The position numbers and the translations under genes are program-made. From Pseudomonadota bacterium (GTDB lineage: Bacteria; Bdellovibrionota; Bdellovibrionia; Bdellovibrionales; SG-bin7), in assembly GCA_034439715.1 (NCBI GenBank), contig JAWXAY010000033.1, positions 15,647 through 79,646 on the forward strand: a DNA stretch of 64,000 nucleotides, written 5' to 3'. The notes beneath the pieces were generated by a model that was not told the DNA's origin, did not search any database, and saw only the letters and a list, made by a program, of their open reading frames with translations. This document shows, piece after piece, positions 1 to 25,697 of the stretch (position 1 is its first letter; every line of letters starts with the position of its first letter).

Positions 1-226
1 AACCCTTAAGAAAATCGGACAGGTCCTTTTTCTGATAGTCGTTCGATTCTATTTGTTCCATTTCGACCTTTTTATCAGGTCGACCCTGCAATCCATTGGT
101 AATGCTCGCGAGTTGTTTTTCTATGGTGTTGCCCAAGATGCGAACCATTCCGATAGTGGCAACCCCCACTAGCGCCACTATAATTAGGTACTCGATAAGT
201 CCTTGGCCTTTATTATTTTTAAGCAT
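1..226 (-). CDS. flp: Flp family type IVb pilin (3' end truncated by window edge; absent from ORF track)
   Basis: Reverse complement reads MLKNNKGQGLIEYLIIVALVGVATIGMVRILGNTIEKQLASITNGLQG...; G|QGLIEY Flp motif followed by a hydrophobic helix; GGAG RBS at 232-235. Confidence 0.9.
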   Translation of the reverse strand, partial: MLKNNKGQGLIEYLIIVALVGVATIGMVRILGNTIEKQLASITNGLQGRPDKKVEMEQIESNDYQKKDLSDFLKG

Positions 227-326
227 AAGTGCTCCTTTTGGGAGACTCCATTGCAAGATGGGGCACACAAAGGAAAGGCACTATAGCAACAACAGAAGAA
301 TTACTTGGTTCGAAAACCGGACGTTA

Positions 327-713
327 TTACTTTTTCTTGGTTTTTTTAGCGATTTTTGCAGATTTGATAGGCTTTGAGGGTTTAGCGGCCTTTGCCACCT
401 TTGCTTCTTTTAAGGGTTTAGCTGTTGGAACCTTTACGGCCTTGGCTTGTTTAGCCACCTTTGCAGCGATGGCTTCTTGTTTCGCTTGGGCCTTGGCCTG
501 GATTTTAGCTTCTATTTTAAGATTTTTTCTTTGCATGAGGAGACTTTCGATAATGTCATATGCCTCTTTTTGTAGATCATTCTCGAAAATAAAACGATAA
601 AGTCCCTCAACTTCTTGGGATTGTCTAAATTTTCTGAGCGTTGTTGGAGCCTGTTCTGACGTCGAAAAACTAATGCTTGCTCCATCACCAGACAAAGTAA
701 CTTTTGCTGCCAT
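327..713 (-). CDS. Hypothetical protein with Lys/Ala/Pro-rich histone-H1-like C-terminal tail
   Basis: ~60-aa globular N-terminus, then xAK/xPK repeats (22 Lys in the last 66 aa); GGAGG RBS; TTGACT-N17-TAGAAA sigma70-like promoter upstream. Confidence 0.8.
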   Translation of the reverse strand: MAAKVTLSGDGASISFSTSEQAPTTLRKFRQSQEVEGLYRFIFENDLQKEAYDIIESLLMQRKNLKIEAKIQAKAQAKQEAIAAKVAKQAKAVKVPTAKPLKEAKVAKAAKPSKPIKSAKIAKKTKKK

Positions 714-855
714 AAAAGCCTCCCCAAAAAAAGATAGAATAAATCAATAGTCATTTTCTAGGCTAATTATTGCGTAAAGTCAATGACCCCCAGGTGTTGG
801 AAAAACGAACTGTTTAGACTAATAAAGTTAGGACGTATAAATGAAAGGCTGATTT

Positions 856-1728
856 TTGATAATACTGGATGGTAAAGAAGTTTCTCTTCGTTGTACGGAA
901 CTTACTAAGGCTCGCAGTAGTGAATTCCAGAGACAAAATGGGCGAGCGCCGGGCCTTGCGGTTATTCTGGTGGGAGGAGACTCAGCCAGCCAAGTTTATG
1001 TCAAAAATAAAATCAAATCCTGCGAAGCTAGTGGCATACTCTCGTTCCCCCATTATTTAAGGGCGGAGACAGAAAGTTCTGAGCTTGAAGACCTTATTGA
1101 GTCGCTAAATAATAAGTCTGAAGTGGATGGAATCTTGTTACAACTTCCGTTGCCGTCTCATCTAGACAAAGAATATTTTATCGAGCTAATTGCTCCCTTA
1201 AAAGACGTTGATGGGCTTGGCTACGACAGCTTGGGGCGGCTTTGGGCAGGTAGGCCTCGAGTCATCCCCTGTACACCTAAAGGCGTGATTAGAATTTTAA
1301 AACATTATAATTTGGATCTTGCTGGCAAGCGGGCAGTTGTCATCGGAAGAAGTGAAATAGTTGGCAAACCAATGGCGCAATTGTTATTGATGGAAAACGC
1401 CACTGTTACGATTTGTCATTCTAAAACTAAAGACATCAACGAGTATTCCAGACAAGCTGATATCGTTGTCGTGGCCGCGGGACGTCCGCGACTTTTCGGC
1501 AAAGAAAATTTTAAGAAAGATTCCATTGTAATTGATGTGGGAATTCACCGGATACCAGACGGCAATGGCACGAATACCAAACTTTGCGGTGATGTTCGAT
1601 TTGATGAGCTTGCGGGGCACTGCTTAGCGGCCACGCCCGTTCCTGGGGGAGTGGGACCAATGACAATAGCGATGTTGCTAGAAAATACCTTAGATCTAGC
1701 GACTACAAACAAAGTAGCGAAAAACTAA
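856..1728 (+). CDS. folD: Bifunctional methylenetetrahydrofolate dehydrogenase/cyclohydrolase
   Basis: YVKNKIKSC, VDGILLQLPLP, KDVDG, PCTPKG, GRSEIVGKP, TPVPGGVGPMT motifs. Confidence 0.97.
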   Translation: MIILDGKEVSLRCTELTKARSSEFQRQNGRAPGLAVILVGGDSASQVYVKNKIKSCEASGILSFPHYLRAETESSELEDLIESLNNKSEVDGILLQLPLPSHLDKEYFIELIAPLKDVDGLGYDSLGRLWAGRPRVIPCTPKGVIRILKHYNLDLAGKRAVVIGRSEIVGKPMAQLLLMENATVTICHSKTKDINEYSRQADIVVVAAGRPRLFGKENFKKDSIVIDVGIHRIPDGNGTNTKLCGDVRFDELAGHCLAATPVPGGVGPMTIAMLLENTLDLATTNKVAKN

Positions 1729-3623
1729 AAACCAAATTTTTTCGGATCTTCATTTATCATCATTGCCGAAATAAGCTTGGGAACATATTCGCGAGTCTCG
1801 CAAGACATCATGTGGAACTCATGTAAAAACCAATAATCGGGAGACTGTTCGCCCCACTTTTCTGCTAAATCCCACCAGTCGTCGCCCTTGCTTGTTTTGA
1901 GATTCCCAAATTTATTGTTGATTCGTTCGTGGGCTAAGTCGGGTTTTTTGACTAAAGGTTTATTTTTGAAGTTTTGCTTAAAGAACGCATCATACTTATC
2001 GACACTTACAATATTTCGAATATAGGAATAAATCCCACCCGCGCCATTGTTGTAGGCGGCAAAAGCAAGCTTGTAGTCGGCTTTAATAAAATATTTTAAT
2101 AGAAAATCAAAGTAATTTATTGCCGCTGTCGAGGCTTTCATAAAATCCCCTCGCTCATCGCGGGTGTCGGCCTCCCCGTTAACCAGTGCAAAAGTTTTTA
2201 GTCCACGTTCACGGCCAGTTGCTCGCATGAATTGCCAGGGTCCCACGGCACCAGAACTGCTGACTTCAATTATCGGAGTAGGCTTAAAAAAACGTGGCGA
2301 CTCGACGAGTGTCGTAAAAAAGAAGTTTGCCGGAACGTCCAAAGTTTCAAACTGATTTTTTATTTTTTCGAAGTATACTTTCGAAGCTTTAAAAAATCGA
2401 ACAAGAGACGGCTTATAGTTTATCTCGGCTGAATCTCTCCTAAAGCAGTGCGGAATCGAAATTTTATTTCCTTGCCAACGCTGTATCCATTTTTGTGTTA
2501 TTTGGTGGCCATAAGTTTCTTCAGGAGTAAAAGTCAGCGCCGAAGAATTTTTTATGGGAAACTCCAATGGAGGAAAGTCGCGACTGAATTGCTCATTAAT
2601 AAGAGAAGTCCTAGGTTTCTGTAAATTGATACTGATAAAAGCATTATTGTTAATGGCGGGTGCCATTCGGGGATTGACCGATAGATCGGGCTGCAGCAAA
2701 GGCTTTTTCGCTGGTTCTATATTTTTACCGTTAAAATCCACAAAAAGGTCAAAATAATTTTCGGTGTCGGGAATTTCAAATCTAATGGCGACTTGTCCGT
2801 TTTGGGTATTTCCAATGAGTTTTAAACTTTGAAAAGGCAAGAAGTGAGTGCCACAAGTGATATTTACTTGAGGCAGCGGCTGCCCCGTAAGGTCTGTGTT
2901 CTGCAGCTCTCCTTCAAGACAAATTTTTTGATTCGAGTTGATCGCGAGCTCTATTTTAAAGATTGACCTTCCCATAGAAATTTCAGAAGCAAATGCACTT
3001 ACTGCTGTAGAAGCTGTAAACTTCTCTATAAAAATCGGAAGCAACGGATGAGTCAGCAAAAACTTGTCAAGCAATTCTAATGTACTGGCTTGATTTAAAA
3101 AGAGTAAGCGTGCTTTAGCCGTGACGTTTCTCATGGTAAACGAGGTCGAAGCGCCGTCGGCTTTTAACACTCCCACATATGTTTGGCATTCAGTCGTAGA
3201 ACAGAAGACTTTTAGAGTGGATTGACTGTTTAATGCTTTGAGATCAACAACGACTTTATTTGAAGTCGGTGCCTCACCTGAAAAAATGAATTCATCATTA
3301 GGGTTTTCAAGACTTACCCTGATAGTCATATTTTCGGGGACCGCATCGGTGTCAGGTCCAATATCAACACTAACAACTCTCGAAGTGAGTATTTTATCTG
3401 ATACTGATTTAGGGTTCGAAGCTGCTTTTGCGGCAGAAAGTGCCTTGTCAGAACCGTTCGAGGCCCGGGTATAAACGCGAGAGTTTTTAGGAGAGGTACC
3501 ACCTGTTAGTTCCGTCGAGTCGAAAACTTCGGGATTAAAATCGCCAAATTCCGATTTTCCACATGAGCTTAAAATCAGCGCGGCCAAACTAGTAAAAATT
3601 AAATTTTTAAATAAATTCACCAC
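1725..3623 (-). CDS. Lipoprotein with C-terminal lytic transglycosylase (SLT/MltD-like) domain
   Basis: Lipobox LILSSC; LVES (catalytic Glu), GAVGPWQFMRATG, AAYNNG, ETREYVPK motifs; ~350-aa unassigned N-terminal region. Confidence 0.88.
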   Translation of the reverse strand: MVNLFKNLIFTSLAALILSSCGKSEFGDFNPEVFDSTELTGGTSPKNSRVYTRASNGSDKALSAAKAASNPKSVSDKILTSRVVSVDIGPDTDAVPENMTIRVSLENPNDEFIFSGEAPTSNKVVVDLKALNSQSTLKVFCSTTECQTYVGVLKADGASTSFTMRNVTAKARLLFLNQASTLELLDKFLLTHPLLPIFIEKFTASTAVSAFASEISMGRSIFKIELAINSNQKICLEGELQNTDLTGQPLPQVNITCGTHFLPFQSLKLIGNTQNGQVAIRFEIPDTENYFDLFVDFNGKNIEPAKKPLLQPDLSVNPRMAPAINNNAFISINLQKPRTSLINEQFSRDFPPLEFPIKNSSALTFTPEETYGHQITQKWIQRWQGNKISIPHCFRRDSAEINYKPSLVRFFKASKVYFEKIKNQFETLDVPANFFFTTLVESPRFFKPTPIIEVSSSGAVGPWQFMRATGRERGLKTFALVNGEADTRDERGDFMKASTAAINYFDFLLKYFIKADYKLAFAAYNNGAGGIYSYIRNIVSVDKYDAFFKQNFKNKPLVKKPDLAHERINNKFGNLKTSKGDDWWDLAEKWGEQSPDYWFLHEFHMMSCETREYVPKLISAMMINEDPKKFGF

Positions 3624-12975: not shown

Positions 12976-13725
12976 TTAAATCGCTCTCGCAATGATGATA
13001 GTGTGAGTGCCCAAAAGATTTTCTTTCGACATTAAAAATTTAAAGAGGTCCTTATTAGCGGCGCGATTCTGGGGAGATTTTTCGCGGATAAAACAGGCGC
13101 GGTAAATCGAAAACCAAACGAAGGGATAAAAGAGATAATACCAAATCATCGAGCTTGTTTTATAGCGATGGGTGAGAATTTTCTCAATTCGAAGGTTTGA
13201 CTTTGCACACGCAAAATAAAGTTGATTAAAAGCGATAGGATTGATGTGCTCAAAGTACATGTTGGGACTTGTCACTGGGATAGGGCTTGAAGCCATGGTG
13301 TGAAAACCACTCCAAAAAAAATTCCAACGACTGCCGAGACTTAAAGTGTTGGGGGTCGTCAATACCAATTGACCATCTTTTTTAAGCACTCGCCTGGCCT
13401 CGCGCAAAAATGCAAAATGATTATCGATGTGTTCGATGCCTTCAACACACACTACATAAGAAAATTTCTCATCACTAAAGTCAAAGCGTTCAGTCATGTT
13501 GATCTTTTTATAATCGACTCCTGTGAGGCAATGGAGCGACTCATCAATTTCTCCAGCCACACCCTGAAAGCCAAGGGCTTGCAAATCGCGAATGAGATAA
13601 CCGGGGCCAGAAGGCAGATCTAGTACTTGGCCCTGGTTTTGAGTTTTAAGATAATCAATAACAATTTTATGTAGATAGGGATTGTGTCTAATAGGTTCGG
13701 AAAAGTTTTTTTCAATAAACGACAT
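12976..13725 (-). CDS. Class I SAM-dependent methyltransferase
   Basis: VLDLPSGPG motif I, EGIEHI, RVLKKDGQLVLTTPN. Confidence 0.88.
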   Translation of the reverse strand: MSFIEKNFSEPIRHNPYLHKIVIDYLKTQNQGQVLDLPSGPGYLIRDLQALGFQGVAGEIDESLHCLTGVDYKKINMTERFDFSDEKFSYVVCVEGIEHIDNHFAFLREARRVLKKDGQLVLTTPNTLSLGSRWNFFWSGFHTMASSPIPVTSPNMYFEHINPIAFNQLYFACAKSNLRIEKILTHRYKTSSMIWYYLFYPFVWFSIYRACFIREKSPQNRAANKDLFKFLMSKENLLGTHTIIIARAI

Positions 13726-14020
13726 TAATTTAAAATACTTTTAAACCGCCATTTTGTCTAGCACCAATCATGTAGTTCCGGTACCGACTGTATTGATTCC
13801 GCCGACCTCTAACGTAACACCCGAGGCAAGCCGCAATATTCCCGTTGTGAGGTTGTATTAGTTACCGACATTTAGCTAGTTAGACTTTAGTCAGGAGCGT
13901 ATCAATGTGAGAAAAAACCAAAGATTGGTCTAGCTTTCGCAATATGAGATGTCGACGCATCTCGCACTCAGACAAGCGTAAGTATTACTGACTCAATTTC
14001 AGAAACTGACCCGACTCTAC

Positions 14021-14048
14021 TAAAGTAGGTGTCCTGTAATTCCGATAA
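14021..14048 (+). promoter_or_regulatory. FliA/sigma28-like promoter of the giant gene
   Basis: TAAAGTAG...TCCGATAA (TAAA-N16, one nt longer than canonical), 9 nt before ATG 14058. Confidence 0.5.
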
Positions 14049-14057
14049 GTTGGGTAT

Positions 14058-17000
14058 ATGGGACGTCTCTGGACCGGGCTTTCAACTAGCCATTCATTCT
14101 ACTACTTGTTTCACTTTTCCTTGTTGCAGCCAATGCAGTTCGCGGCCTTCTTTTCTGTGGTTTTTCTGGCCAGCACTTTTCAAAACCAGGCACAAGCAGC
14201 TTGCGGCGGTACCGTGCGTACATGGGACTCAGGAGCAGGCAGCGCCAACTGGAGTGCCGCTGCCAATTGGTCGGCGGATGATATCCCCAATACCACCACT
14301 GAAGACGTGGTTATTGTTTCGGGAGCGCAAATCCCTAATTTTGATACCGCTTATTCAGTGGGTTGTCTCGAGATTCAATCAGGAACATTAACGGCTAACA
14401 GAAACAACAGAGTTCTTACTATCAATGGCGACTATTTTAGAAACCTCACCGCCAATTCATTTACTGTGGGTTCAGCTAGTTTTACTTTAAAAATGGGTGT
14501 ACCTGGCTCACCAGTACAAACTCTTGAGAATTACGACCTTCTAGAAATTTTAGAAATTGGCAATAACAACACCGTTACAAGTACGAAACCTTTTAGGATG
14601 AATACTCAGCTGCAATTCACAGCCGGTTGGACGGGTACCTTAAAACTCAATGGCGATTTAGATTATAGAGGGGGTGCTGTTACCATTCCCGCCGGAGGTA
14701 CAGTCATCATAGGTTCCGGTGTGACTTGGGCATCTACTGCTAATATTACTGTAGCGGGCACTTTAAAAATTATGCCAGGTGCCACTCTTAAATTTAATAC
14801 CGGCCGCACGCTTACTGTTAATAATAATGCCTCGCTAATTATAGCAGGCGCTTCAGGAAATTCGGGTAAAATTTCAGGACAAGATTTTAACGACAGTTGG
14901 ACCTTTAACATGAACGGCATCCTTAACGCCGACTACTTTCTGTTATCGCGCATGGCAGTTTCTGGATTGAATATTGGGGCCACTGGCATTGTGCAAAAAC
15001 TCGATAACGGAGAATTTCATTACCCACAATTAAATGGCGATGCCATAAGAGTCGCTAACGGCGCTACGTTGCCTGCGACTATGAATCAACTTGGCTTTTC
15101 AAATGATGCTAATTTGGCTGGGACAAAAAACTTTAACAGCGCCTATACCGGCACTGCTATTACTGTTAATAATTGGACAGGAAATGGTAATACCGCAAAT
15201 GAACGAGCCGATACCGGAAATAAAATTCTTTGGGGTGCGCAAGGGGGCACTAAATTATCTCTTGTGGATTTTTCAAACCCACCAGCAACTATCAATCAAG
15301 CGACCACAGTTACCGGCGGCACTTTTTCTTTTGCTCTCAATCAGGCATCGACTCTCACTAATATTACTAGCATTAAAATTTCAATGTTGGGTACGGCTAC
15401 AACTTCGGATATCGATTATATAACGGTATACGCAGATGCTGCAGGCAGTATGGATTGCGTACTCACTGTTGGTACTGACACTGTTATAGCGAATCAGGTT
15501 TCACTCAGCAGTTCACCCCTGAGCTATACAGTTGCTATTGCCTCGGGAGTTGTCACAACTTCTAGTGACACTGCTAAACACTGTATTCATGTGCAAGTTA
15601 GAACTACCGGCACCGCCCAAGATAATAAGACTATTCGTCTTGGCGTTCAGGGTACAAACGACGTGGTTAACAGTCAGGGCTATACCTTTTCAGATTCCGC
15701 AGCACCGCCTGTTTTGGCTTCTCCAGATATTGTTATAGTCGGTGATGTAATTAGAAAGTGGCAAGGAGACATAAGTACGGCTTGGAGCAATGCTGGAAAT
15801 TGGTCAGGTGGAGTGGTTCCGACCGGGACTCGTGACTGCCAAGTGGGAGTCGGTACTAACGTAGCCGTTCTCGATGCTACCGGAACTTGTCAGGTCGCTA
15901 ATTTTTTAACGGGGGGAACGCTCAACTTTAATGCCACAGGGCGAATCTTGAATCTTACTGGTGGAATAAATATTGACCCTGGTTTTATATTTCAAACTCC
16001 CACAAATGTTGGCACTCTCAATTTTAGTGGTGCTGTCGCTGAAGGCGTTTCGATTGCGACCCCAGTACCGGCCCATGTGACAATTAATAATACGGGAGCG
16101 GCAGGCAATGATTATGTAGAAATCAACGGCGATACTACTATCGGCGATGCCTCTGGCAATGGGGGGAATGTCACAGTCACTAATGGCACGCTTCGTGTAA
16201 ATGCTCCTTATACCTTGACGATCAAGGGCAATCTCACTTGCGCGGCACTTGCAGGAAACGGAATAGAAATCGCGGCCGGCGCTACTTTAAAGATGGGAAA
16301 CAATAGAACCATAACTATCAATAACGGCTGTACGTTTACGCTTGTGGGAAACATCAATCAAAATGTTGTGGTTACATCTGACAACATTGCAAACTCTTAC
16401 AATGTTATCGTCGCAGCGGGTGGTATTATAAGTGCGAATTATTACAAATTTGAAAACCTAGGTACGCTGGGATTAAATATTGCCGGTACGATCAATGCCA
16501 CCAACCATTTACAAAATGGTACATTTAGATATCCCAGAGGCAACAATGGAAAAATGTTAGACCTTGACGTGGCTGTTCCTACAAATTCAATGGACAATAT
16601 GACATTTACGTCGGGCGGGTCGTCAGCCACGGGCACCACTAATATTGATACGGCCACCAATGGTGCTGGCGGCACACTCACATTAAATAACTATACTGGT
16701 GATTTAGCGGGACCGTTTTTTGATAATGATCCCACCTATTTACTAGCTTGGTTGAACGCCACAAATACCATAGAAATCACACAAGAAGCGACTTCACCCG
16801 TCACGCTTAATGCGGGTTCTACTTATAATATGGGGCGCTTTGGTTTCAAACAAGCTATGGCAGGAGCGTCTTTTGTAAACACGGATATTACAAGCCTTCG
16901 CTTGACGTTAACTGGTACGGCTTCCAGTAATGATATTTCAGACGTCAAAATTTACTACGACGCTACTTGTGCTGGTGCCGGCGGTGTACTTGTTGATAGC

Positions 17001-20000
17001 GGAGCATTTTCGGGTAACCCGGCTTCTCGTGTATTTACTTTTACGGCGGGCGAAGCCACGGTCAATGCTGATACTTCAACCCCACCAAAAAAATGTCTTT
17101 ATGTTGAATATGTTATTGCTTCGGGAGCCACTGATGGCAACACCGCAGGGGTGGAGTTAGTTTTAACCACTGATTTTGCGAGCTCGGCGGGTTATGCGGT
17201 GGACTCAAATACTCTACCACCTCTTTTTCTGGGATCACCTGGTACAATTTCTGGAAGTTCCTCTGTAAATTGGGTGGGCGGTACAAGCACCAATTGGAAT
17301 TTAGCTGCCAATTGGAGTCCTGCTACCGTTCCTACCAGCGGCATCAGCTGTCGGATTGATAGCAGCGTTAGGAATCCTACCATTGACGTAACAAGCGGTA
17401 ATGCCACTTGCAAAACTGTCATCATCGGAAACGGCACGCTGAATATTTCTACGGGGTACAAACTTTCTGTCTATGGTGGTTATACCAATACTGGTACGTT
17501 AAACTTGGCGGGAACTGCCACTCTTGAATTTGCGGACGGGGGGGTTTTATCAAATCAAACAATTACAAGTAGTACGACCATTGGCAGTATTAGTTTTGCT
17601 AAAACTGCTGGTGGAAACGTCAACATCGGCTCAAGTGCTCTAACAGTTACATCGCTAGTAAATATGCAGGCTGGGCAAAACTTTGATTTTTTAATACCGA
17701 GTGGAAAAAATCTGACGTTTAGCGGAGGAGCCACTGTTAGTGCAGGAACCTTTACCATTGCCGCTGGTGGTACGCTGACCATGGGCAATGCCACGGCTTT
17801 TACGGTTGGTGCCAATGGAACTTTAATTATGATTGGTAGTTCCGGTGCCAACTTAGCCACTATGACGGGTGGAAGTAATAAATTTAACGCTGTTATCAAT
17901 GGAACAATCAAGGCGCAGTACTATAAGTTTGATCATCTATCATCAGCAGGAGTTAGTGTTGAAAGCGGTTCAACCATTGACGTCACTTACCATTTGCAAG
18001 ATGGTAGTTTTACATATCCTGTCGACGCTTCGACCACGATGCTCTTTTTAAAACGCCAAGTTCCAACTGATACAATGGACAACACCAAGTTTGATAAAGG
18101 CGGCTCCGCGGCAGCGACGCCAAAGAATATCAACACGACAGGTGCTGCGGCGGGTACTCTCACCATGAGTGGTTACTTAGGCGATATTGCTGGCGATGCC
18201 TTTGAAGTTGAAGGGTCTTATACAATTAGTTGGGGCGCAGGTGTAAATACCATAAATCTCACTCAAAGTGCTGCCACCGCACTTGGTTCAGTTACTGCTC
18301 CTTCGACAGCAAATTTGATGGGGCGTTTCGGCTTTAAACAAACTCTCGCGGGCGCGTCTTATAGCGATGCTGCACTTACAACTTTAAAACTAACCCTTAA
18401 AGGAACGGCCATAGCAGCAGATGTCAGTGAAGTTCGCATTTATTACGAGACAGATTGTAACAGCGCTGGTGGTACACTTATCGGTTCGGGTATATTTAGT
18501 GGATCGCCGGGTACCGCAACATTTAATCTTAACCCTACTGATGCGATTATTCCCTTCAATGCTACAACACCACCTACCGTTTGCATTTATGTCCAATACG
18601 ATATTCCATCTGGTGCCACAAACGGAAACACCGTAGGGGTCGAGGTTGCCATCAATAGTCATGTCACCAATGACCAGGCCTACGCCATTGCTGACGCTAC
18701 ACCAGTACCAGTCAATTTAGGCACGGCGATTGCCATAAGTGGTGCGATAAATACGACATGGAACGGATCGGTAAGTACCGCTTGGGGTACTGCCGGAAAC
18801 TGGTCTGCGGGAGTGCCTACATCGACAGTTAATTGTACAATTCCTACTGGTTTGACTGTCTGGCCAAACGTAGCAGCAGGAACAATCATTTGTAAGAGTG
18901 TAACTTTACAGGGCTCAATGACAATGTCAGCTGGAACTTGGGATGTGCACGGGGATTTTATTAATACGGGCACTTTTACAAACTCAGGTGGTGCTTTAAA
19001 CTTTCAAGGTACTGCTAATCAAAACTTTAGTAGCGGTAGCACTATATTTAATGTGACCTTTGGAAAAACGGCCGGAACCGTTGCCATTACTGGTGCAAGT
19101 GTACCTATTACATCGATCGATTTTACGGGAGGCTCGGCTTACACATTTAAAGTGAATTCTGGCAGAACGGTGACCTTTACAAATAACGTAACTGTTTTGA
19201 CTGGTAAGACATTTGATATTTCAGCGGGCACGGTAAGAATGTCTAACGGAAGAACTTTTACTATTAATAGTGGTGCGACGTTAAATATGATTGGAACTTC
19301 TGCAGTTTTAAATTCTGTCATGACTTCAACTGGTGGAGCCAACGCATTTAATGTGGTCATTGCGGGAACCATTGCAGCGAGATATTTTACTTTTGACCAC
19401 TTGGGCGTCGCAGGTGTGGCTATAAATGGAACCGCTACTATAAACGCGACCAATCAGTTGCAAGATTGTAATTTTACATATCCCGTAAACAACAATACCA
19501 AGTTTTTAACCCTAGCTATTCCCATTCCAGTTGCAACTTTGGACAATTGTAAATTTGATTTGGCGGGATCGGTAGCAACAGGAACAAAAACGATTGATGC
19601 CTCTGCAGTGACTGGTGGCGCCCCCAACCCAGACTTGACACTTAATAATTGGTCAGGCGACGCCGGAGGCACCAGCAGCAGTATCAATAGTGGTACCTAT
19701 ACGATCGCTTGGGCGCCGGGACTCAACACCATAAATATCACTCGTGAAGCTGCCAGCCCCACCACAGTGAACGCCGGCACTACATATAACATGGGCCGCT
19801 TTGGCTTCCAGCAAGTTTTAGCCGGTACCTATGCAGATACAGATATAACAACACTCAGGCTTTCAACCACTGGAACGGCTGTGGCCTCAGATATAAGTCA
19901 GGTCCGAGTCTATTACGATAGTGATTGTAACAACTCAGCCGGAACTCTTATTGGCACAGGAGCCTTTGCCGGTTCCCCATTAACTAAGACATTCACTTTC

Positions 20001-23000
20001 TTGGCGGGAGACGCGAGAATTCACTTTAGTGCAACATCCCCACCACTCCGTTGTATTTATGTTGAGATGGATGTTGCTCCGGGTGCCGTTAATGCTCGGA
20101 CCATAAGTGCAAAAATTGATGTCTCGGCTGATTTGGTAAATAGCCTCGGTTATGCTGTGGCGACGGCATTTCCTGTGGCACTTGCCACGACTCCCTCTAC
20201 AATTGTGGGCGCTTCAAATACCACATGGACTGGAACTACAAGTACAGCTTGGAATTTGGCGAGTAACTGGACAAGCGGAATTCCCGATTCCACAAAAACT
20301 TGCACTCTCGTCAACGTAGCGAACGATCCTATTATCAGTACAGCGACTCAAGCATGCAGAAACGTAAGTATAGGTAACGGGATCTTAACAATTAACACCG
20401 GTTCAACTCTTCAAGTTTATGGAAACTACGACAATACTTCGGGTTCAGTTACAATGAGCGGCACTGGTACTGTTCGCATGATGGACGGCGGAACCGGCAG
20501 CGCTCAGACTGTGGCGAGTACCGCCCAACCTATGAATAAATTAACATTTGATAAAACAACTGGCGGCTCAGTTCGTGTTAATTCTACTATGACAATTACT
20601 AATTTGACGATTCCTGCTGGGTCTAATTTCACTTTCCAAATTCCTGCGAGTACGACACTGACGTTAACAAATGGTCTCGCAATTCCTGCAGGGACCGTCG
20701 ACGTGCAAAATGGCGGAACTATATTGATGGCTAGCGGCACTACACTTAGTGTGACTGGCGGGACATTTAAAACTTCGGGTGTTAATGATACCTTTGTGCA
20801 AAGCTCAGCTAACAAAGGCAAAGTAAGTCGTGTTTCTGGTTCGTGGTCGTTTAACGCAACTTCTGGCACCGTCAATCTCACTGGGTTTTGGTTAGATTAT
20901 TTAGATGCGAACGGTATGCAGATAAATGGCTCCACCACACTTTCAAATTTGAGTGGCGGTCAGTTTACAAATCTTGCTACGAACGGTAGGGGTATGCAAG
21001 TAAACACGAGCGGTGCCGTACCGGCAACCGCCGCAAATGTGGGATTTGAGTGGGGCGCATTCAATGCGGCAAATTCAGGTCAAAGTTGTTTAGCGGGCAC
21101 TTATTATACCGTGTACGCAACGGCTTGTGGTGGAAATACAATTACGTTTACAGAATGGTGGGGTAATTGGTGGCCAGGACAACAATCATTAGTTGACTGT
21201 TCCCCCGACGATCATATTTGGGATTCGGCAGAAGGGGCTTCATGCACCATTAGCATGGCGTCGTCAGCTTCACCAGTTTCGCTATTGTCACTGGTTGCTA
21301 AACCGTACAATCATGCGGTGTCAATTGAATGGGTAACAGCTTCTGAACTTGATCACCAGGGATTTAATGTTTACCGCAGTCTCGACATGTCTAGCGGATT
21401 TATTCAAATCAATTCTGAGTTGGTGAGAAACATTATTTCGTCAACGTCGTATAAAGGAAAATACCGCTTTGTGGATCACGAGGTTGAAAACGGTACTCTC
21501 TATTACTATATCATCGAAGATGTGGCTTTTAATGGTGCTAAAGAGAAGCATGGACCCGTCAGTGCAAGACCCTTAATAATATTAACGGCTCCGCCGGCTG
21601 ATCCCAGTGACACTAACTCTGGAACAACAGATCCTAATCCGAACGCAGGTAACGATCCCTCGACCGGGCCTATCGCGACACCGGGAATGGTTGACCTCGG
21701 GAATGGCGTTCACATTTTAGCGCAAACTAAAAACTCTTTACGTATAGAAATCATTCCGCCGCCAGAGACTTGGGCTAATTCTACTTGGAATGCGACTTAT
21801 AAAACTCTTAAGGTCCCGGGATATTCGAACACGCTAACACCAGGATACCCAGAACTTGTGGATAGGACTATTTTAGTTGAGGTCAGTGATCAACATAGTA
21901 GTGCTTTGGTTATCAATTCGAGTTTGGTTGAGACCGTTCCTGTTGCCAAAAAAGTTCAACCAGCACCGAATTGGGTGGCCAATGGTGGTGGCATTCTGCA
22001 AGCTTCGTATGCCGAGAATGCGGTCGCTTATAGTGCCGCTGGGTATCAGCCGGCGACTTATTATTCTTTGGATAGCGCGCTTAAAACTATCGGTGGCAAA
22101 ACCTACTTAGCTCTAAATGTGTCACCATTTAAATACGATGCTGTTAATCAGCTTGTAAAAAATTCGAGCAAAATCGTACTTGATATTGCGCTTGATGGTG
22201 AACCTATATGGAATGGTCAGCCGCCTACCAGCGATCCGGCACTGTCGCCGTCAGCTGCAGATGGCGTGTTGCGAATTGGCTTTCGTAGCTCTGGACTTTA
22301 TGAATTAACTTACAATGATTTTGTCACAGCTAATGTAGATGGTCCATTCGCGGGACACGACTCCACTCAATTTCGCATGTATGTACGGGGAGAAGAAATA
22401 CCCATTAGTATAATATCGACCAACAGTACTTTTTCGAGTGGTGATAAAATAAGATATCACGTTGATCATTTGAGAAATTCCGAAGACGATGAAAATGAAG
22501 TCGTACTCAGCTCTTATAATGTTCAGAATAGTGCAAGTGCCCCCTTGCGAATGGATCACCGGAACGCTGAACCGACAAGTTTTGGTGCTTCACCTGAAGT
22601 GGGGTCTTATTATAAAGTAGCAGTGGAGCAGGATGTTGACTTCTATCTGGACTATCCATTAGGTCCTGATCAAGATCATTTTTTCTGGAAGCGCATTAAA
22701 GCTAACAGAAATGGTAATCGCAATCCCTATCCTACAGCGGCCAAAATGGACATACCCATTGATCTTACTCGTTTAGATCAAAATTCGACTAGAAAAGTTT
22801 ACCTGAGAGTTTATTTAAGAGCTCGAGCTAATATGACTACAAATGCGAGTCACCACTTGGGCCTGTATTTAAATAACATCACCTATATGGTCGATGAAAA
22901 AGTATTTACCGAAGACAAGCCGACAGTATTAACTTTTGAGTTGAATCCTAACTTCTTTTTTGACGGCATAAACACGATCAAACTTTTAGCTCTTGGAGAC

Positions 23001-24698
23001 ATGGTTCCCGAAAACAATTGGGACATTATAGACATTGATCGCGTTGAAGTCGAATTTGAAGGGTCCCGTTTAGCCATTGCAGACGTTGCCGAATTTACCA
23101 ACCGGTATAGAGACCAAGCCATTTCCGTGTTTGGCTTTTCGAGCACAAATGTTGTGGCCTATGATGTTTCCCAGCAGAATAAACGGGTATCGATTCTAGA
23201 TAATATTGCTTGGTCAGTGAGTGGCGGACTTAATGATGCCACCTTTGCCACAGTCAGTAATATTGAGGGCGACATGGGCACTCACTACGTTTTAATAAAA
23301 GACGGACAATATAAAAAGCCCACATCACTTTTACTACAAGAAGGCATTTATTTGCCTCTCAAATCTTCAGCGCAAGGAGCGGACTTAATTATTGTCGGTC
23401 CAAAATCTTTGCTAAGTTACACCGAAAAACTAGTCAGTGTTCGTGAAGGTGATGGTCTTCGTGTTGTTAGTGCGCCGCTGGAGCAAATCTATGCCGAATT
23501 TTCAGACGGTTTGAACACCAGTCGCGGTGTTAGAGATTTTATTCTCTACGCCTACAATAATTGGACATTTCCCAAACCTAAATACTTACTAATTATTGGT
23601 GATGCAACATATGATCCCTTGGATAAACTTGGTTATGGCCGCGCTGACAAAGATAGCATGACGCCATTGGCATTGGTCAGCGGAATCCATATTGACTTTG
23701 GCAGTGATAATTACTTTGTGGCGAATCCCGATGGTACAGACATTCCAATAATGTCTGTTGGACGAATTCCAACCTCTCAGCCAGATTTCTTAGAAGGCTA
23801 TATCAATAAAATACTAGCCTACGAAGTCGGAAGCTCAGCGCCATCCACTGGGTATAACTCGCACAATGCCGTTTTTATTAATGATAAGCCTTCATTTGGA
23901 GACAATTTCTCAAAAGGCGTTGATGAATTGTCCGCGGCGCTCTATTCATCAAGACCAGATTACACCTCAACAAAACTAAATCGTGAGTTATACACAGACG
24001 TCAATTTCAAACAAAAAATTATTGACGAATTTAATTCAGGTCCGTTTTTAATGACTTACCTTGGACACGGAGCTGAAGAACGCTGGATGTCCGATAGTTC
24101 TGGAAATCCTGTTTTTGGCAATACTGAGGCAAAGGCATTAACAAACGCGCGCCTACCAATTGTTCTCGCCCTGAACTGTTTGAATTCCTATTTTTACGAT
24201 CCAGATCCAGACCCTTCTTGGTCAGGACTGGGCGAAGAACTTATATTAAATGCCAATGGCGGTGCTATTGCATTTTGGGGATCTACAGCCATGACAACGC
24301 CTGGAACGCAAAAAAAGTTAGCTACGTCATTTATTAATGAATTCAGCGCTGAAACCACTTTGGCAGTTCACGATGTTCGCTTAGGCGACATCTTGAGCCG
24401 CGCCAAACAAGTGCTCGGTTCCGACGAAAACTCTAAGGATACTATCCGCAGCTGGGCCCTTTTAGGCGATCCTTCTATGAAGTTACCGAGTGATGTTTTT
24501 AAAGCTCAAAGCGTTGATCAATCCTCAACAAGAAAGAGTAAAGGCTTTTTATCTTGCGGTAGTATCGACATTGGCTCAAGTGGCGGTAGTGGTCCAAATT
24601 GGCCCGCGCTTTTTGAAATGCTATTGCTGGTAGGATTTATTATGTTGTTGAGGATTCGCTTGGTTCTAGTGCCCGCCAAACAACGAATCAAACGATAA
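14058..24698 (+). CDS. Giant (3546 aa) surface protein: five beta-rich adhesin-like repeats, PVxL Ig-like domain, C25 propeptide-like region, gingipain-like C25 cysteine peptidase, C-terminal TM anchor
   Basis: Signal peptide ending AQA; repeats start at W56, W568, W1072, W1568, W2057; C25 motifs KYLLIIGDA, SDNYF, VGRIP, TYLGHG (His3337), ALNC (Cys3374), ALLGDP; C-terminus SCGS-Gly-rich-TM-KQRIKR. Confidence 0.9.
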   Translation: MGRLWTGLSTSHSFYYLFHFSLLQPMQFAAFFSVVFLASTFQNQAQAACGGTVRTWDSGAGSANWSAAANWSADDIPNTTTEDVVIVSGAQIPNFDTAYSVGCLEIQSGTLTANRNNRVLTINGDYFRNLTANSFTVGSASFTLKMGVPGSPVQTLENYDLLEILEIGNNNTVTSTKPFRMNTQLQFTAGWTGTLKLNGDLDYRGGAVTIPAGGTVIIGSGVTWASTANITVAGTLKIMPGATLKFNTGRTLTVNNNASLIIAGASGNSGKISGQDFNDSWTFNMNGILNADYFLLSRMAVSGLNIGATGIVQKLDNGEFHYPQLNGDAIRVANGATLPATMNQLGFSNDANLAGTKNFNSAYTGTAITVNNWTGNGNTANERADTGNKILWGAQGGTKLSLVDFSNPPATINQATTVTGGTFSFALNQASTLTNITSIKISMLGTATTSDIDYITVYADAAGSMDCVLTVGTDTVIANQVSLSSSPLSYTVAIASGVVTTSSDTAKHCIHVQVRTTGTAQDNKTIRLGVQGTNDVVNSQGYTFSDSAAPPVLASPDIVIVGDVIRKWQGDISTAWSNAGNWSGGVVPTGTRDCQVGVGTNVAVLDATGTCQVANFLTGGTLNFNATGRILNLTGGINIDPGFIFQTPTNVGTLNFSGAVAEGVSIATPVPAHVTINNTGAAGNDYVEINGDTTIGDASGNGGNVTVTNGTLRVNAPYTLTIKGNLTCAALAGNGIEIAAGATLKMGNNRTITINNGCTFTLVGNINQNVVVTSDNIANSYNVIVAAGGIISANYYKFENLGTLGLNIAGTINATNHLQNGTFRYPRGNNGKMLDLDVAVPTNSMDNMTFTSGGSSATGTTNIDTATNGAGGTLTLNNYTGDLAGPFFDNDPTYLLAWLNATNTIEITQEATSPVTLNAGSTYNMGRFGFKQAMAGASFVNTDITSLRLTLTGTASSNDISDVKIYYDATCAGAGGVLVDSGAFSGNPASRVFTFTAGEATVNADTSTPPKKCLYVEYVIASGATDGNTAGVELVLTTDFASSAGYAVDSNTLPPLFLGSPGTISGSSSVNWVGGTSTNWNLAANWSPATVPTSGISCRIDSSVRNPTIDVTSGNATCKTVIIGNGTLNISTGYKLSVYGGYTNTGTLNLAGTATLEFADGGVLSNQTITSSTTIGSISFAKTAGGNVNIGSSALTVTSLVNMQAGQNFDFLIPSGKNLTFSGGATVSAGTFTIAAGGTLTMGNATAFTVGANGTLIMIGSSGANLATMTGGSNKFNAVINGTIKAQYYKFDHLSSAGVSVESGSTIDVTYHLQDGSFTYPVDASTTMLFLKRQVPTDTMDNTKFDKGGSAAATPKNINTTGAAAGTLTMSGYLGDIAGDAFEVEGSYTISWGAGVNTINLTQSAATALGSVTAPSTANLMGRFGFKQTLAGASYSDAALTTLKLTLKGTAIAADVSEVRIYYETDCNSAGGTLIGSGIFSGSPGTATFNLNPTDAIIPFNATTPPTVCIYVQYDIPSGATNGNTVGVEVAINSHVTNDQAYAIADATPVPVNLGTAIAISGAINTTWNGSVSTAWGTAGNWSAGVPTSTVNCTIPTGLTVWPNVAAGTIICKSVTLQGSMTMSAGTWDVHGDFINTGTFTNSGGALNFQGTANQNFSSGSTIFNVTFGKTAGTVAITGASVPITSIDFTGGSAYTFKVNSGRTVTFTNNVTVLTGKTFDISAGTVRMSNGRTFTINSGATLNMIGTSAVLNSVMTSTGGANAFNVVIAGTIAARYFTFDHLGVAGVAINGTATINATNQLQDCNFTYPVNNNTKFLTLAIPIPVATLDNCKFDLAGSVATGTKTIDASAVTGGAPNPDLTLNNWSGDAGGTSSSINSGTYTIAWAPGLNTINITREAASPTTVNAGTTYNMGRFGFQQVLAGTYADTDITTLRLSTTGTAVASDISQVRVYYDSDCNNSAGTLIGTGAFAGSPLTKTFTFLAGDARIHFSATSPPLRCIYVEMDVAPGAVNARTISAKIDVSADLVNSLGYAVATAFPVALATTPSTIVGASNTTWTGTTSTAWNLASNWTSGIPDSTKTCTLVNVANDPIISTATQACRNVSIGNGILTINTGSTLQVYGNYDNTSGSVTMSGTGTVRMMDGGTGSAQTVASTAQPMNKLTFDKTTGGSVRVNSTMTITNLTIPAGSNFTFQIPASTTLTLTNGLAIPAGTVDVQNGGTILMASGTTLSVTGGTFKTSGVNDTFVQSSANKGKVSRVSGSWSFNATSGTVNLTGFWLDYLDANGMQINGSTTLSNLSGGQFTNLATNGRGMQVNTSGAVPATAANVGFEWGAFNAANSGQSCLAGTYYTVYATACGGNTITFTEWWGNWWPGQQSLVDCSPDDHIWDSAEGASCTISMASSASPVSLLSLVAKPYNHAVSIEWVTASELDHQGFNVYRSLDMSSGFIQINSELVRNIISSTSYKGKYRFVDHEVENGTLYYYIIEDVAFNGAKEKHGPVSARPLIILTAPPADPSDTNSGTTDPNPNAGNDPSTGPIATPGMVDLGNGVHILAQTKNSLRIEIIPPPETWANSTWNATYKTLKVPGYSNTLTPGYPELVDRTILVEVSDQHSSALVINSSLVETVPVAKKVQPAPNWVANGGGILQASYAENAVAYSAAGYQPATYYSLDSALKTIGGKTYLALNVSPFKYDAVNQLVKNSSKIVLDIALDGEPIWNGQPPTSDPALSPSAADGVLRIGFRSSGLYELTYNDFVTANVDGPFAGHDSTQFRMYVRGEEIPISIISTNSTFSSGDKIRYHVDHLRNSEDDENEVVLSSYNVQNSASAPLRMDHRNAEPTSFGASPEVGSYYKVAVEQDVDFYLDYPLGPDQDHFFWKRIKANRNGNRNPYPTAAKMDIPIDLTRLDQNSTRKVYLRVYLRARANMTTNASHHLGLYLNNITYMVDEKVFTEDKPTVLTFELNPNFFFDGINTIKLLALGDMVPENNWDIIDIDRVEVEFEGSRLAIADVAEFTNRYRDQAISVFGFSSTNVVAYDVSQQNKRVSILDNIAWSVSGGLNDATFATVSNIEGDMGTHYVLIKDGQYKKPTSLLLQEGIYLPLKSSAQGADLIIVGPKSLLSYTEKLVSVREGDGLRVVSAPLEQIYAEFSDGLNTSRGVRDFILYAYNNWTFPKPKYLLIIGDATYDPLDKLGYGRADKDSMTPLALVSGIHIDFGSDNYFVANPDGTDIPIMSVGRIPTSQPDFLEGYINKILAYEVGSSAPSTGYNSHNAVFINDKPSFGDNFSKGVDELSAALYSSRPDYTSTKLNRELYTDVNFKQKIIDEFNSGPFLMTYLGHGAEERWMSDSSGNPVFGNTEAKALTNARLPIVLALNCLNSYFYDPDPDPSWSGLGEELILNANGGAIAFWGSTAMTTPGTQKKLATSFINEFSAETTLAVHDVRLGDILSRAKQVLGSDENSKDTIRSWALLGDPSMKLPSDVFKAQSVDQSSTRKSKGFLSCGSIDIGSSGGSGPNWPALFEMLLLVGFIMLLRIRLVLVPAKQRIKR

Positions 24699-25004
24699 AA
24701 CCACACCTGCACTAGCACCCACCCCTATACCATTAGCTAACATATCGTTGGATGAAAAATCGCTATCGGTAAGTTCCTTAATTGTCCCCACCGTAAGGGC
24801 CACAAGGCTACCGTATATTATAGATTTCCACTTTGAATATTTGGCTCGGCGAAAGGCATCGGTCGCGCTATAGGAAAGTCCAAAGCTTGCCAGCATATGG
24901 AGTTGTTTATCGGTGTTATTCCACGAGAATTTATCGTCGTTAGGGAGCGCCGCTAGAGAGGTGTTTGACACCATTAATATTAGCGCTAGAAGAATTTTTT
25001 TCAT
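24666..25004 (-). CDS. YfiM/DUF2279-like small exported membrane protein
   Basis: DKQLHMLAS, GTIKELTD, FSSNDMLANGIG motifs. Confidence 0.65.
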   Translation of the reverse strand: MKKILLALILMVSNTSLAALPNDDKFSWNNTDKQLHMLASFGLSYSATDAFRRAKYSKWKSIIYGSLVALTVGTIKELTDSDFSSNDMLANGIGVGASAGVVLSFDSLFGGH

Positions 25005-25067
25005 ACTTAAAAGTTTTCCAAATTCTAGAGATTAATGCAATTGAAATCTTAAGCGTTCTATGCGACC

Positions 25068-25697
25068 TTGCTCAACACCATGCCACTTGAAAAGCTTTTT
25101 CCGACTTACGTATACAACGAAAAATTGAAATCAAATGACTTAAATTTGCGAGGCGAGATTTTATCGGAGGCCTATAAGTTTAGGGATGACGACATAGAAG
25201 GCCATAAATGGTGCAAAAAAAACTATGTCGGTGGTTACACCTCATATGGTTCGCTCTGTAAACTTCATAAAATGTCGCCCACCTTTAACGAACTAAAAAA
25301 ACAAATTGATAAACATGTCAAAAAATATATCCAAGTTACTGAAATGGATCTTGAAGGCCACAAAATAGAAATGAACAGCTGCTGGGTTAGTATTATGCCT
25401 GCGCAGAGCCATCATAGCTTTCATATTCATCCACAGTCTTTTATTAGTGGCACCTACTATGTTTCAACTCCAAAAAATTCTTCGGTGATTAAGTTTGAAG
25501 ATCCTAGGCTTGCATTTTTTATGGGTTCACCATCCCGAAAATCAAAATGTCGGCGTGAAAATCAGCACTTCGTGGCTGTTGACCCTCGGGAGGGCAACGT
25601 GGTGCTTTTTGAAAGTTGGTTGAGGCACGAAGTACCCGCGAATACTAGCGAAACAGAACGGGTTAGCGTTAGTTTTAACTACAGTTGGAATTTCTAA
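25068..25697 (+). CDS. TIGR02466-family putative 2OG-Fe(II) oxygenase
   Basis: LFPT N-terminus, HSFHIHPQSFISGTYYV, FEDPR, LFESWLRHEV, RVSVSFN. Confidence 0.88.
   Translation: MLNTMPLEKLFPTYVYNEKLKSNDLNLRGEILSEAYKFRDDDIEGHKWCKKNYVGGYTSYGSLCKLHKMSPTFNELKKQIDKHVKKYIQVTEMDLEGHKIEMNSCWVSIMPAQSHHSFHIHPQSFISGTYYVSTPKNSSVIKFEDPRLAFFMGSPSRKSKCRRENQHFVAVDPREGNVVLFESWLRHEVPANTSETERVSVSFNYSWNF

Follow-up and report, generated by a model that had tools for sequence, protein, structure and literature searches.

We analysed a 64,000-nucleotide (nt) stretch of DNA, hereafter the window, from a metagenome-assembled genome (MAG) of the Bdellovibrionota that was assembled from microbial-mat metagenomes (3.26 Mb, 111 contigs). 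The window contains a gene for a giant putative surface protein, whose C-terminal third carries a module of the peptidase family C25. To our knowledge, C25 peptidases are known almost entirely from Bacteroidota, namely, the gingipains, which are virulence proteases, and PorU, which is the sortase that belongs to the secretion system of type IX (T9SS). What is new in the gene described here is that a PorU/gingipain-family module occurs in a new architecture and in a new genetic partnership, with a cassette of peptide-maturation genes, and that the T9SS hallmarks we tested for were not found.

The gene consists of one intact open reading frame (ORF) of 3,546 amino acids (aa), as recognised in the original prediction, which had been made from the sequence alone. 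It is present as a single copy in the genome, and no ORF of comparable size was found on its opposite strand. Its G+C content (~45%, versus 42% for the genome) shows no compositional break. Since the flanking genes on both sides are housekeeping genes (methyltransferase, Na+/H+ exchanger, 2-oxoglutarate-Fe(II) oxygenase and aminotransferase), the giant gene stands alone. A chimeric assembly, which had been named among the findings that would refute the prediction, was ruled out by identical contigs from independent metagenome runs. The 3' part of the gene is present in 11 runs. In two of these runs, a single contig of 27,307 nt covers positions 13500-25200 of the window without any difference, and another two give tiled coverage of the same positions, likewise free of differences and at even depth.

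Architecture of the giant protein

The C-terminal module (aa 2396-3546) was modelled with AlphaFold2 (AF2) using 52 homologues, with a predicted local distance difference test score (pLDDT) of 87.2 and a predicted template modelling score (pTM) of 0.79. The features located in this way, together with those of the rest of the gene, are included in Table 1. First, the module opens with an Ig/FN3-like domain, whose motif residues W, T, E, G and R reach at least 90% conservation among 52 sequences of several phyla; in other phyla, the tblastn matches start at aa ~2400-2407. The PVSLLSLVA motif that had drawn attention to this segment thus belongs to a confidently modelled beta-sandwich, the first domain of the module that is shared across phyla. 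Second, it is followed by a linker rich in Pro, Thr, Asn and Asp, which had also been noticed, and which is disordered in the AF2 model. Third, the suspected resemblance of the next segment to the C25 propeptide was confirmed by profile and fold comparison, although the Pfam model Propeptide_C25 remains below its cut-off on the single sequence (16.6-20.4 bits versus 22): the family profile matches the prodomains of RgpB (E 3.1e-11) and Kgp (E 3.6e-12) in the PDB, and Foldseek matches 4ief_C (E 4.7e-9, TM-score 0.65) and 5mun (E 3.6e-8). Fourth, beta-sandwich domains of PorU type, with pLDDT mostly above 90, connect the prodomain fold with the catalytic domain, and the profile alignment to PorU (6za2) begins at chain residue 25 and crosses these sandwiches into the catalytic domain. 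The module is therefore a mosaic of a gingipain-type prodomain fold and a PorU-type body.

The catalytic domain matches Peptidase_C25 (PF01364) from end to end, as predicted, with an E-value of 5.8e-64 and 217.1 bits against a cut-off of 23, over aa 3111-3476 and profile positions 2-374 of 374; a search of the six-frame translation of the genome returned the same single hit. The proposed catalytic dyad, His3337 and Cys3374, was numbered correctly and aligns with that of RgpB. Neither residue varies among 14 full-length giants of the Bdellovibrionota or among 52 modules taken from Bdellovibrionota, Acidobacteriota, Chloroflexota, Planctomycetota, Omnitrophota and others, which is consistent with an active enzyme. 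Separase, CHAT and caspase-11 were matched by Foldseek in addition to RgpB.

The relationship of the module to the characterized C25 enzymes was evaluated at three levels. For PorU (6za2), the single sequence gave E 2e-11, the family profile E 3e-61 over chain residues 25-792, and Foldseek E 4e-25. For RgpB, the corresponding values were E 8e-6, E 2e-39 and E 5e-17 (TM-score 0.69), and for Kgp, the family profile gave E 1e-21 and Foldseek E 1.5e-13 (TM-score 0.61). The best PDB match of the AF2 model is latent PorU, with 872 aligned columns, followed by the catalytic domains and prodomains of RgpB and Kgp. Thus, the label of gingipain used in the original prediction holds for the prodomain fold but not for the module as a whole, for which the sortase PorU is the best match in sequence, profile and fold over ~770-870 positions; the gingipains stand further away from it.

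Despite the shared beta-sandwich and C25 domains and the common His/Cys dyad, the protein of the window is not simply a PorU. It scores 167.2 bits with the NCBIfam PorU model NF033707, far below the cut-off of 420, and the match is restricted to profile positions 289-737 of 1095. The cargo on which PorU acts, in trans, carries the T9SS C-terminal domain (CTD), whereas no match to a T9SS CTD family was obtained with the whole window protein or with its last 74 aa. The T9SS translocon protein SprA was not detected in the genome, in a search that had no positive control and did not extend to PorV and PorZ. Moreover, the window protein has a 2,400-aa stalk and the gingipain-type prodomain fold in front of the PorU-like body and a Cys-containing, hydrophobic and basic tail behind it, and its host belongs to the Bdellovibrionota rather than to the Bacteroidota.

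The gingipains RgpB and Kgp (MEROPS C25; 1cvr, 4ief, 4rbm, 5mun) share with it the catalytic fold (TM-score 0.6-0.7), the aligned dyad and a prodomain-type fold upstream of the catalytic domain, and RgpA and Kgp also carry adhesin-type domains on the same polypeptide. However, the order is reversed, the adhesin part of the window protein being N-terminal; ~400 aa of PorU-type domains (aa 2713-3109) separate the prodomain fold from the catalytic domain; there is no Asp opposite the S1 residue Asp163 of RgpB, in a loop whose alignment is uncertain; and neither the ending composed of IgSF domain and CTD nor T9SS hallmarks were detected.

The stalk had been described as five long beta-rich repeats. 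It is beta-rich, and five anchors of the form W-x-G-x2-ST-x-W-x4-NWS begin at aa 56, 568, 1072, 1568 and 2057, but only four repeats are full; the fifth ends after ~330 aa and lacks the C-terminal sandwich. The full repeats share 24-43% pairwise identity (BLASTP E 1e-26 to 1e-124), and an AF2 model of R3, built from an alignment of 31 repeats, is all-beta with a pLDDT of 92.7. Foldseek matches of this model suggest a right-handed beta-helix-like part of ~340 aa that resembles phage tailspikes, and ~190 columns match the N-terminal carbohydrate-binding domain of Bacteroides sialidases of glycoside hydrolase family 33 (GH33; probability 1.0, TM-score ~0.2), in agreement with a faint match of the repeats to Pfam BNR_assoc_N. 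The repeat therefore recalls beta-helix fibrillar adhesins and tailspikes in its body and a sialidase carbohydrate-binding module (CBM) in its sandwich, although these matches are weak (E at least 1e-3, TM-score ~0.2). Neither G8, a domain that the original prediction had suggested looking for, nor any other Pfam or NCBIfam family matches the repeats above threshold. From these models, the stalk may bind glycans. Its length varies within the family, since relatives have two or four full repeats.

At the N-terminus, which reads MGRLWTGLSTSHSFYY...MQFAAFFSVVFLASTFQNQAQA followed by ACGG, the expected signal peptide is present as a hydrophobic core followed by AQA/AC, and the A-A-C-G-G-T junction is kept in most of the family. 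Cleavage could occur by signal peptidase I after Ala47 or at a lipobox-like QAAC site with Cys49. The signal is preceded by a 25-residue extension (MGRxWxGLxTSxxFY; window 14058-14132) that is shared with the two closest homologues. It is reminiscent of the extended signal peptides found in very large secreted proteins, or else its conservation could reflect an element at the nucleotide level.

At the opposite end, the catalytic domain is followed by a tail that, in the AF2 model, consists of a disordered Gly/Ser linker with Cys3500 and a helix at aa 3515-3545. From alignments of 16 and 26 family tails, the same layout emerges in 26 of 26 Bdellovibrionota members: it begins with a stretch rich in Gly, continues with a Cys that never varies and with 10-20 polar residues, and closes with a hydrophobic segment of ~17 residues, in which one Glu is nearly invariant, and a cluster of basic residues. 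We treat the tail as a putative C-terminal membrane anchor with a conserved juxtamembrane Cys, and its position directly behind the C25 domain supports the earlier proposal that this domain is membrane-proximal. An HMM of the family tail, searched against all ORF ends of the genome, recovered only the giant C25 protein (next best E 0.06), as did a generic scan of the same ends for a transmembrane (TM) segment plus basic residues. The possibility that the tail is a sorting signal with multiple clients was accordingly rejected, as there is one client only in the genome.

A sigma-28-like promoter had also been predicted, and such a motif is present upstream of the gene. It can also be written as TAAA-N16-TCCGATAA, and it fits the sigma-28 consensus with one additional spacer base. 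A CCGATAA-type -10 element lies directly before the ORF in the orthologous loci L008, L009 and L021, and a weaker one in L007. In the whole genome the pattern TAAA-N14-17-CCGATA occurs 71 times, against a rough expectation of ~25, often 7-10 nt upstream of the start codons of secreted, signal-peptide-bearing proteins (for example, on contigs C10, C16, C53, C62, C88 and C104), and this recurrence supports both the promoter call and the upstream ATG as a leaderless start. If transcribed from this motif, the mRNA of the giant gene would be leaderless or have a very short leader. The genome-wide occurrences suggest a large sigma-28-type regulon with leaderless or near-leaderless mRNAs.

Table 1. 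Location of the features of the giant gene and of its partner cassette. Positions refer to the window, except for the last two rows, which refer to locus L083 (contig C75 of the same genome, G000).
Feature	Position	Strand	Remarks
Sigma-28 (FliA)-like promoter motif	14021-14048	+	TAAAGTAG-N-TCCGATAA; ends 10 nt before ATG
Giant gene (putative surface protein with C25 module)	14058-24698	+	One ORF, 3,546 aa; stop codon included
Predicted N-terminal export signal	14058-14201	+	Pre-signal extension MGRLWTGLSTSHSFYY, hydrophobic core, AQA/AC
Four full repeats, R1-R4	14208-20210	+	~500 aa each; beta-helix-like body with conserved Cys pair, then ~150-aa beta-sandwich
Repeat R1	14208-15743	+	
Repeat R2	15744-17255	+	
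Repeat R3	17256-18743	+	
Repeat R4	18744-20210	+	
Truncated repeat R5 and Cys-rich junction	20211-21242	+	Beta-helix part only
Ig/FN3-like beta-sandwich	21276-21566	+	aa 2407-2503; PVSLLSLVA...GFNVYRS; AF2 strands at model residues 12-108
Pro/Thr/Asn/Asp-rich disordered linker	21567-21677	+	aa 2504-2540; pLDDT <50 at model residues 120-136
Gingipain-type prodomain fold	21690-22193	+	aa ~2545-2712; includes KVPGY...PGYPEL
PorU-type beta-sandwich domains	22269-23372	+	aa ~2738-3105; between prodomain fold and catalytic domain
C25 catalytic domain	23385-24485	+	aa 3110-3476; clan CD fold
His3337	24066-24068	+	YLGHG; aligns with RgpB His211
Cys3374	24177-24179	+	ALNC; aligns with RgpB Cys244
C-terminal tail	24486-24695	+	Polar Gly/Ser linker, hydrophobic helix, basic end (KQRIKR)
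Cys3500	24555-24557	+	Invariant; in Gly/Ser linker
Hydrophobic helix	24600-24677	+	~17 residues; near-invariant Glu3520
Complete peptide-maturation cassette	L083 5024-12827	-	
Precursor ORF, 62 aa	L083 9722-9910	-	Unannotated; in 207-nt gap between radical SAM and peptidase genes

Distribution and co-inheritance with a peptide-maturation cassette

Full-length relatives of the protein, with 33-64% identity over aa ~15-3546, come from MAGs that carry the labels Oligoflexia, Bdellovibrionia, Pseudobdellovibrionaceae, Bacteriovoracaceae and Halobacteriovorax. With many other phyla only the module, starting at aa ~2400, is shared, and there it forms the end of large proteins; these phyla include Acidobacteriota, Chloroflexota, Planctomycetota and Omnitrophota. 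A search of 1.84 billion cluster representatives with the module returned 2,267 relatives at E<=1e-30, nearly all of which form the C-terminal end of a protein of 1,000-5,800 aa, so that the family comprises more than 2,000 sequence clusters in which the module ends giant, presumably surface-exposed proteins. Among 301 genomes of the phylum, 99 encode a C25 domain and 28 a giant, defined as a frame of at least 1,400 aa, and small C25 proteins (520-700 aa) occur in about 70. No C25 domain at all was found in eight genomes (3.3-4.0 Mb, six of them single contigs) of a genus from the same order. All top hits in a collection of species representatives are MAGs, and no named cultured predator is among the top genome hits. 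Our literature search found no description of the family of C25 giants, and nothing relevant on C25 proteins in Bdellovibrio, on C25 proteins associated with SPASM, PqqD or HprK, or on PorU-like proteins outside Bacteroidota.

In a tree of the modules, the Bdellovibrionota sequences form one clade with 100% support, and the sister of the window sequence comes from 'Proteobacteria bacterium SG_bin7'. Two records in this tree have labels at odds with their positions: L008, titled candidate division WWE3, nests in the Bdellovibrionota clade, and L044, titled Clostridia, in the Blastocatellia clade. Both are probably mis-binned contigs.

Clustering of the genes that flank the giants revealed a cassette that adjoins the giant gene, on either side, in 13 of 26 related Bdellovibrionota loci. 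It encodes a 62-aa precursor peptide; an HprK/ScmC-like P-loop kinase; a PqqD-type peptide chaperone, that is, a recognition element (RRE) of peptides that are made on the ribosome and modified after translation (RiPPs); a radical SAM/SPASM enzyme; a small S24/S26 peptidase, similar to archaeal SpI; a PF14907 nucleotidyltransferase; and the ATPase and ABC-2 permease of an ATP-binding cassette (ABC) transporter. The cassette is also found beside C25 giants of Omnitrophota, Verrucomicrobiota, Acidobacteriota (Pyrinomonadaceae) and Chloroflexota. In four Acidobacteriota giants with DUF11 repeats (P0024, P0025, P0027 and P0029), the C25 protein itself has an N-terminal S24/S26-like domain (GxSMxP), homologous to the small peptidase of the cassette, which constitutes a fusion-type link between the two parts.

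Within the 301 genomes of the phylum, the gene for the HprK-like kinase is present in 31, the giant in 28, and both in 26, and the two genomes with a giant only are fragmented (77% and 90% complete). This co-occurrence has a Fisher p of 3e-30, a value that ignores shared ancestry. In 17 of the 26 genomes with both, a single contig carries the kinase gene and the giant no more than 13 kb apart, and the small C25 proteins of the phylum occur independently of the cassette. Giant and cassette are both present in G235, a genome in a single contig, and in G133, which has three contigs. Since adjacency is scattered through a single Bdellovibrionota clade of giants, the coupling looks ancestral. Such co-inheritance, often as neighbours, points to a dedicated peptide partner of the giant.

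The genome of the window retains a complete cassette, although unlinked: it lies on contig C75 and the giant on contig C33, each tens of kb from a contig end. The strict sigma-28-like pattern was not found upstream of this cassette. The precursor ORF, MKNSKK...KPYSSPKVTTESLMIYGAGCNGMSMAGGRKAAVADSCNSLKLHS, belongs to a family that is conserved at 13 loci of Bdellovibrionota and can be recognised in several further phyla, with a YxxPx[IV] leader, two invariant Cys and a C-terminal Ser, and with GGRK within the phylum. Genes for a methyltransferase and a GT4 glycosyltransferase follow the cassette on C75.

The closest described relative of the cassette is the linear polyphosphorylated peptide (LPP) pathway of Bacillota (Popov et al., Nat Commun 2026, PMC13381572). 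Both have an SpI-like leader peptidase, a discrete PqqD-type RRE, an HprK-like kinase, a nucleotidyltransferase and an exporter, and the LPP precursor has a YxxPx[VIL] leader motif, as in the cassette. The cassette of the window genome differs from that pathway by the addition of a radical SAM/SPASM enzyme and of a two-Cys core, by an exporter of ABC-2 type rather than MsbA-like, and by its co-inheritance with a giant C25 protein; that paper describes none of these features.

A proposed two-part system and its rivals

The best explanation for these data is that the gene is the Bdellovibrionota form of a widespread two-part system, composed of a giant and a peptide cassette. In the reading that we favour, with a probability of about 0.5, the giant would be exported by the Sec route and form a fibre, namely, a long stalk of beta-helix and carbohydrate-binding-like repeats, which may bind glycans on a target surface. 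A latent-looking but potentially active C25 module would sit at the base of this stalk, with the C-terminus held at the membrane by the short TM helix and its basic cytoplasmic end. The cassette on C75 would provide the partner: judging by homology, a precursor of ~62 aa, whose leader contains YxxPxV and whose two-Cys core has Ser as its last residue, would be cross-linked by the radical SAM/SPASM enzyme, modified by the HprK-like kinase and the nucleotidyltransferase, trimmed by the SpI-like peptidase, and exported by the ABC transporter. The TM tail would place the C25 domain at the membrane face where the exporter is expected to deliver the peptide, which this domain may cleave or ligate.

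The significance of this proposal lies in the occurrence of a PorU-like module that is complete and conserved, although the type IX hallmarks tested were not found (T9SS CTD not matched, SprA not detected), and in the near-obligate co-inheritance of the cassette in Bdellovibrionota, which leads to the hypothesis that a surface cysteine protease or transpeptidase has a modified peptide as its substrate or partner. If true, RiPP chemistry would be tied to cell-surface architecture, sortase-like attachment would extend beyond the known systems, and Bdellovibrio-like bacteria would have a candidate surface organelle that is absent from the model species.

Several observations weigh against this two-part reading. 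The cassette is unlinked in the window genome and in its closest relative, so that the coupling in both rests on co-occurrence, and the statistic for co-occurrence is not corrected for phylogeny. About 47 of 54 loci of C25 giants from other phyla have no cassette in the flanks that were fetched, which means that the module does not always need a peptide. The cassette already encodes a leader peptidase, so that the need for another protease is not evident. The residue opposite Asp163 in the S1 pocket of RgpB is Ser, as in PorU, in a column that is not conserved and within an uncertain loop alignment. A search of sequencing runs found no RNA run containing the gene. Finally, how a TM-anchored protein of 3,500 aa would cross the outer membrane is unexplained, here as in every other reading.

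The original prediction had proposed, as one of its candidates, a device for the recognition or digestion of prey, that is, a tethered, gingipain-like general protease on an adhesin stalk, which would act on surface proteins of prey or other cells during the attack phase. An invariant dyad, the presence of a prodomain and an adhesin-like stalk with CBM-like sandwiches would all suit such an enzyme, and the organism belongs to an order that contains Bdellovibrio-like genomes. Sigma-28-type promoters are a mark of attack-phase genes in Bdellovibrio bacteriovorus, which for the organism of the window provides an analogy only. Nevertheless, we found nothing that speaks directly for predation, and we consider this explanation unlikely. 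The resemblance of the module to PorU extends over its entire length; the module is also present in Acidobacteriota, Chloroflexota, Planctomycetota and Omnitrophota, phyla that are not known as predatory; members of the family are missing from the C25-free genus of the same order mentioned above, and from the named cultured predators as far as the top genome hits go; and, as weak evidence, no acidic residue stands opposite the S1 Asp of the gingipains. Near-perfect co-inheritance with a peptide cassette would not be expected of a general digestive enzyme. The giant thus probably works with the modified peptide, rather than simply digesting prey.

A second alternative takes the relationship with PorU literally. 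The module would be a sortase that acts in cis: it would cut the chain to which it belongs, either within the disordered linker or where the prodomain begins or ends, and transfer the stalk to an acceptor amine, on the leader-trimmed modified peptide or on a cell-envelope glycan, leaving the module and the TM tail behind as a spent anchor. The closest relative of the module being a sortase and C-terminal signal peptidase fits this idea, as does the fact that the module is always at the extreme C-terminus of a giant cargo, one per cargo, behind a conserved disordered linker; SpI-like trimming would moreover expose a new N-terminal amine on the co-inherited peptide. The idea is, however, wholly inferential. 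PorU itself works in trans on cargo with a CTD, which the window protein lacks, the NCBIfam PorU model falls well short of its cut-off, and many members from other phyla have no cassette nearby. We regard a cis-acting sortase as decidedly unlikely, and as slightly more doubtful still its most specific version, in which a T9SS-independent enzyme would ligate the 2,500-aa stalk to the free amine of the exported, cross-linked and phosphorylated peptide, or the peptide to the stalk. If true, giant surface fibres of many phyla would have a genetically encoded peptide anchor or adaptor.

A third alternative dispenses with any substrate in trans. The C25 domain would serve autocatalytic maturation or release only, by a removal of the prodomain that severs the stalk or by removal of its own Cys/TM tail, and the link with the cassette would reflect co-regulation or shared surface biology. 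The prodomain fold does lie between stalk and catalytic domain, such that activation in the manner of gingipains would release the stalk; a Gly-rich linker of small residues with an invariant Cys directly follows the catalytic domain; and the tail is unique to the giant in the genome. Yet members from other phyla keep the dyad without having the tail, and the strong retention of an unlinked cassette argues for a functional tie between the two parts. This makes self-processing as the sole function improbable. The giant may also be a self-cleaving, releasable adhesin, which the original prediction had named beside the prey device.

Endings of the C25 giants

A last alternative starts from the tail. 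It would belong to the class of MYXO-CTERM signals, be cleaved by a CPBP-type intramembrane protease at the site that follows its modified Cys, and leave the C25 domain as a lipid-anchored protease outside the cell after type II secretion. Haft has described four Cys-containing tripartite C-terminal signals that are processed by CPBP 'myxosortases', and the tail has the same layout, namely, a Gly-rich motif with an invariant Cys, a hydrophobic segment and a C-terminal basic cluster; in addition, a CPBP protein and a tail of this kind each occur exactly once in the genome. Conversely, no NCBIfam CTERM model matched the last 51 or 74 aa even at E<=10, the hydrophobic segment of the window tail contains a near-invariant Glu, and the genome holds a single client, the tail being always found on the giant C25 protein. 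The CPBP protein has detectable orthologues in only 6 of the 28 giant-bearing genomes, and no CPBP gene is conserved beside the giants. Where a CPBP/Rce1-like gene does occur near a C25 gene (L085:2579-3331, plus strand; ~1.4 kb from L085:4708-6348, minus strand; contig C1 of G066), and likewise on contig C3 of G133, the neighbour encodes a small, secreted and tail-less C25 protein (546 aa). With a CPBP protein that is not co-distributed with the giants and elsewhere adjoins a tail-less C25 gene, we rejected the 'myxosortase' as processor of the tail, and find the corresponding reading highly improbable.

The tail is confined to the Bdellovibrionota; members from other phyla end right after the catalytic domain or carry other endings. 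Instead of the Cys/TM tail, Omnitrophota and Planctomycetota giants (L030, L031, L033 and L039) have an amphipathic helix of basic character, for example FWERFREAVSAMFGGLFRRK, so that the C-terminal ending attached to the module differs from phylum to phylum. Chloroflexota C25 proteins from Anaerolineae and Caldilineae (L057, L059, L062, L065, L072 and L076) share a short ending of roughly the form (F/Y)(L/V)P(L/I/T)xx(R/K), as in LFVPLINR, MFLPIAQR and LFLPTVER, which may be a lineage-specific C-terminal signal.

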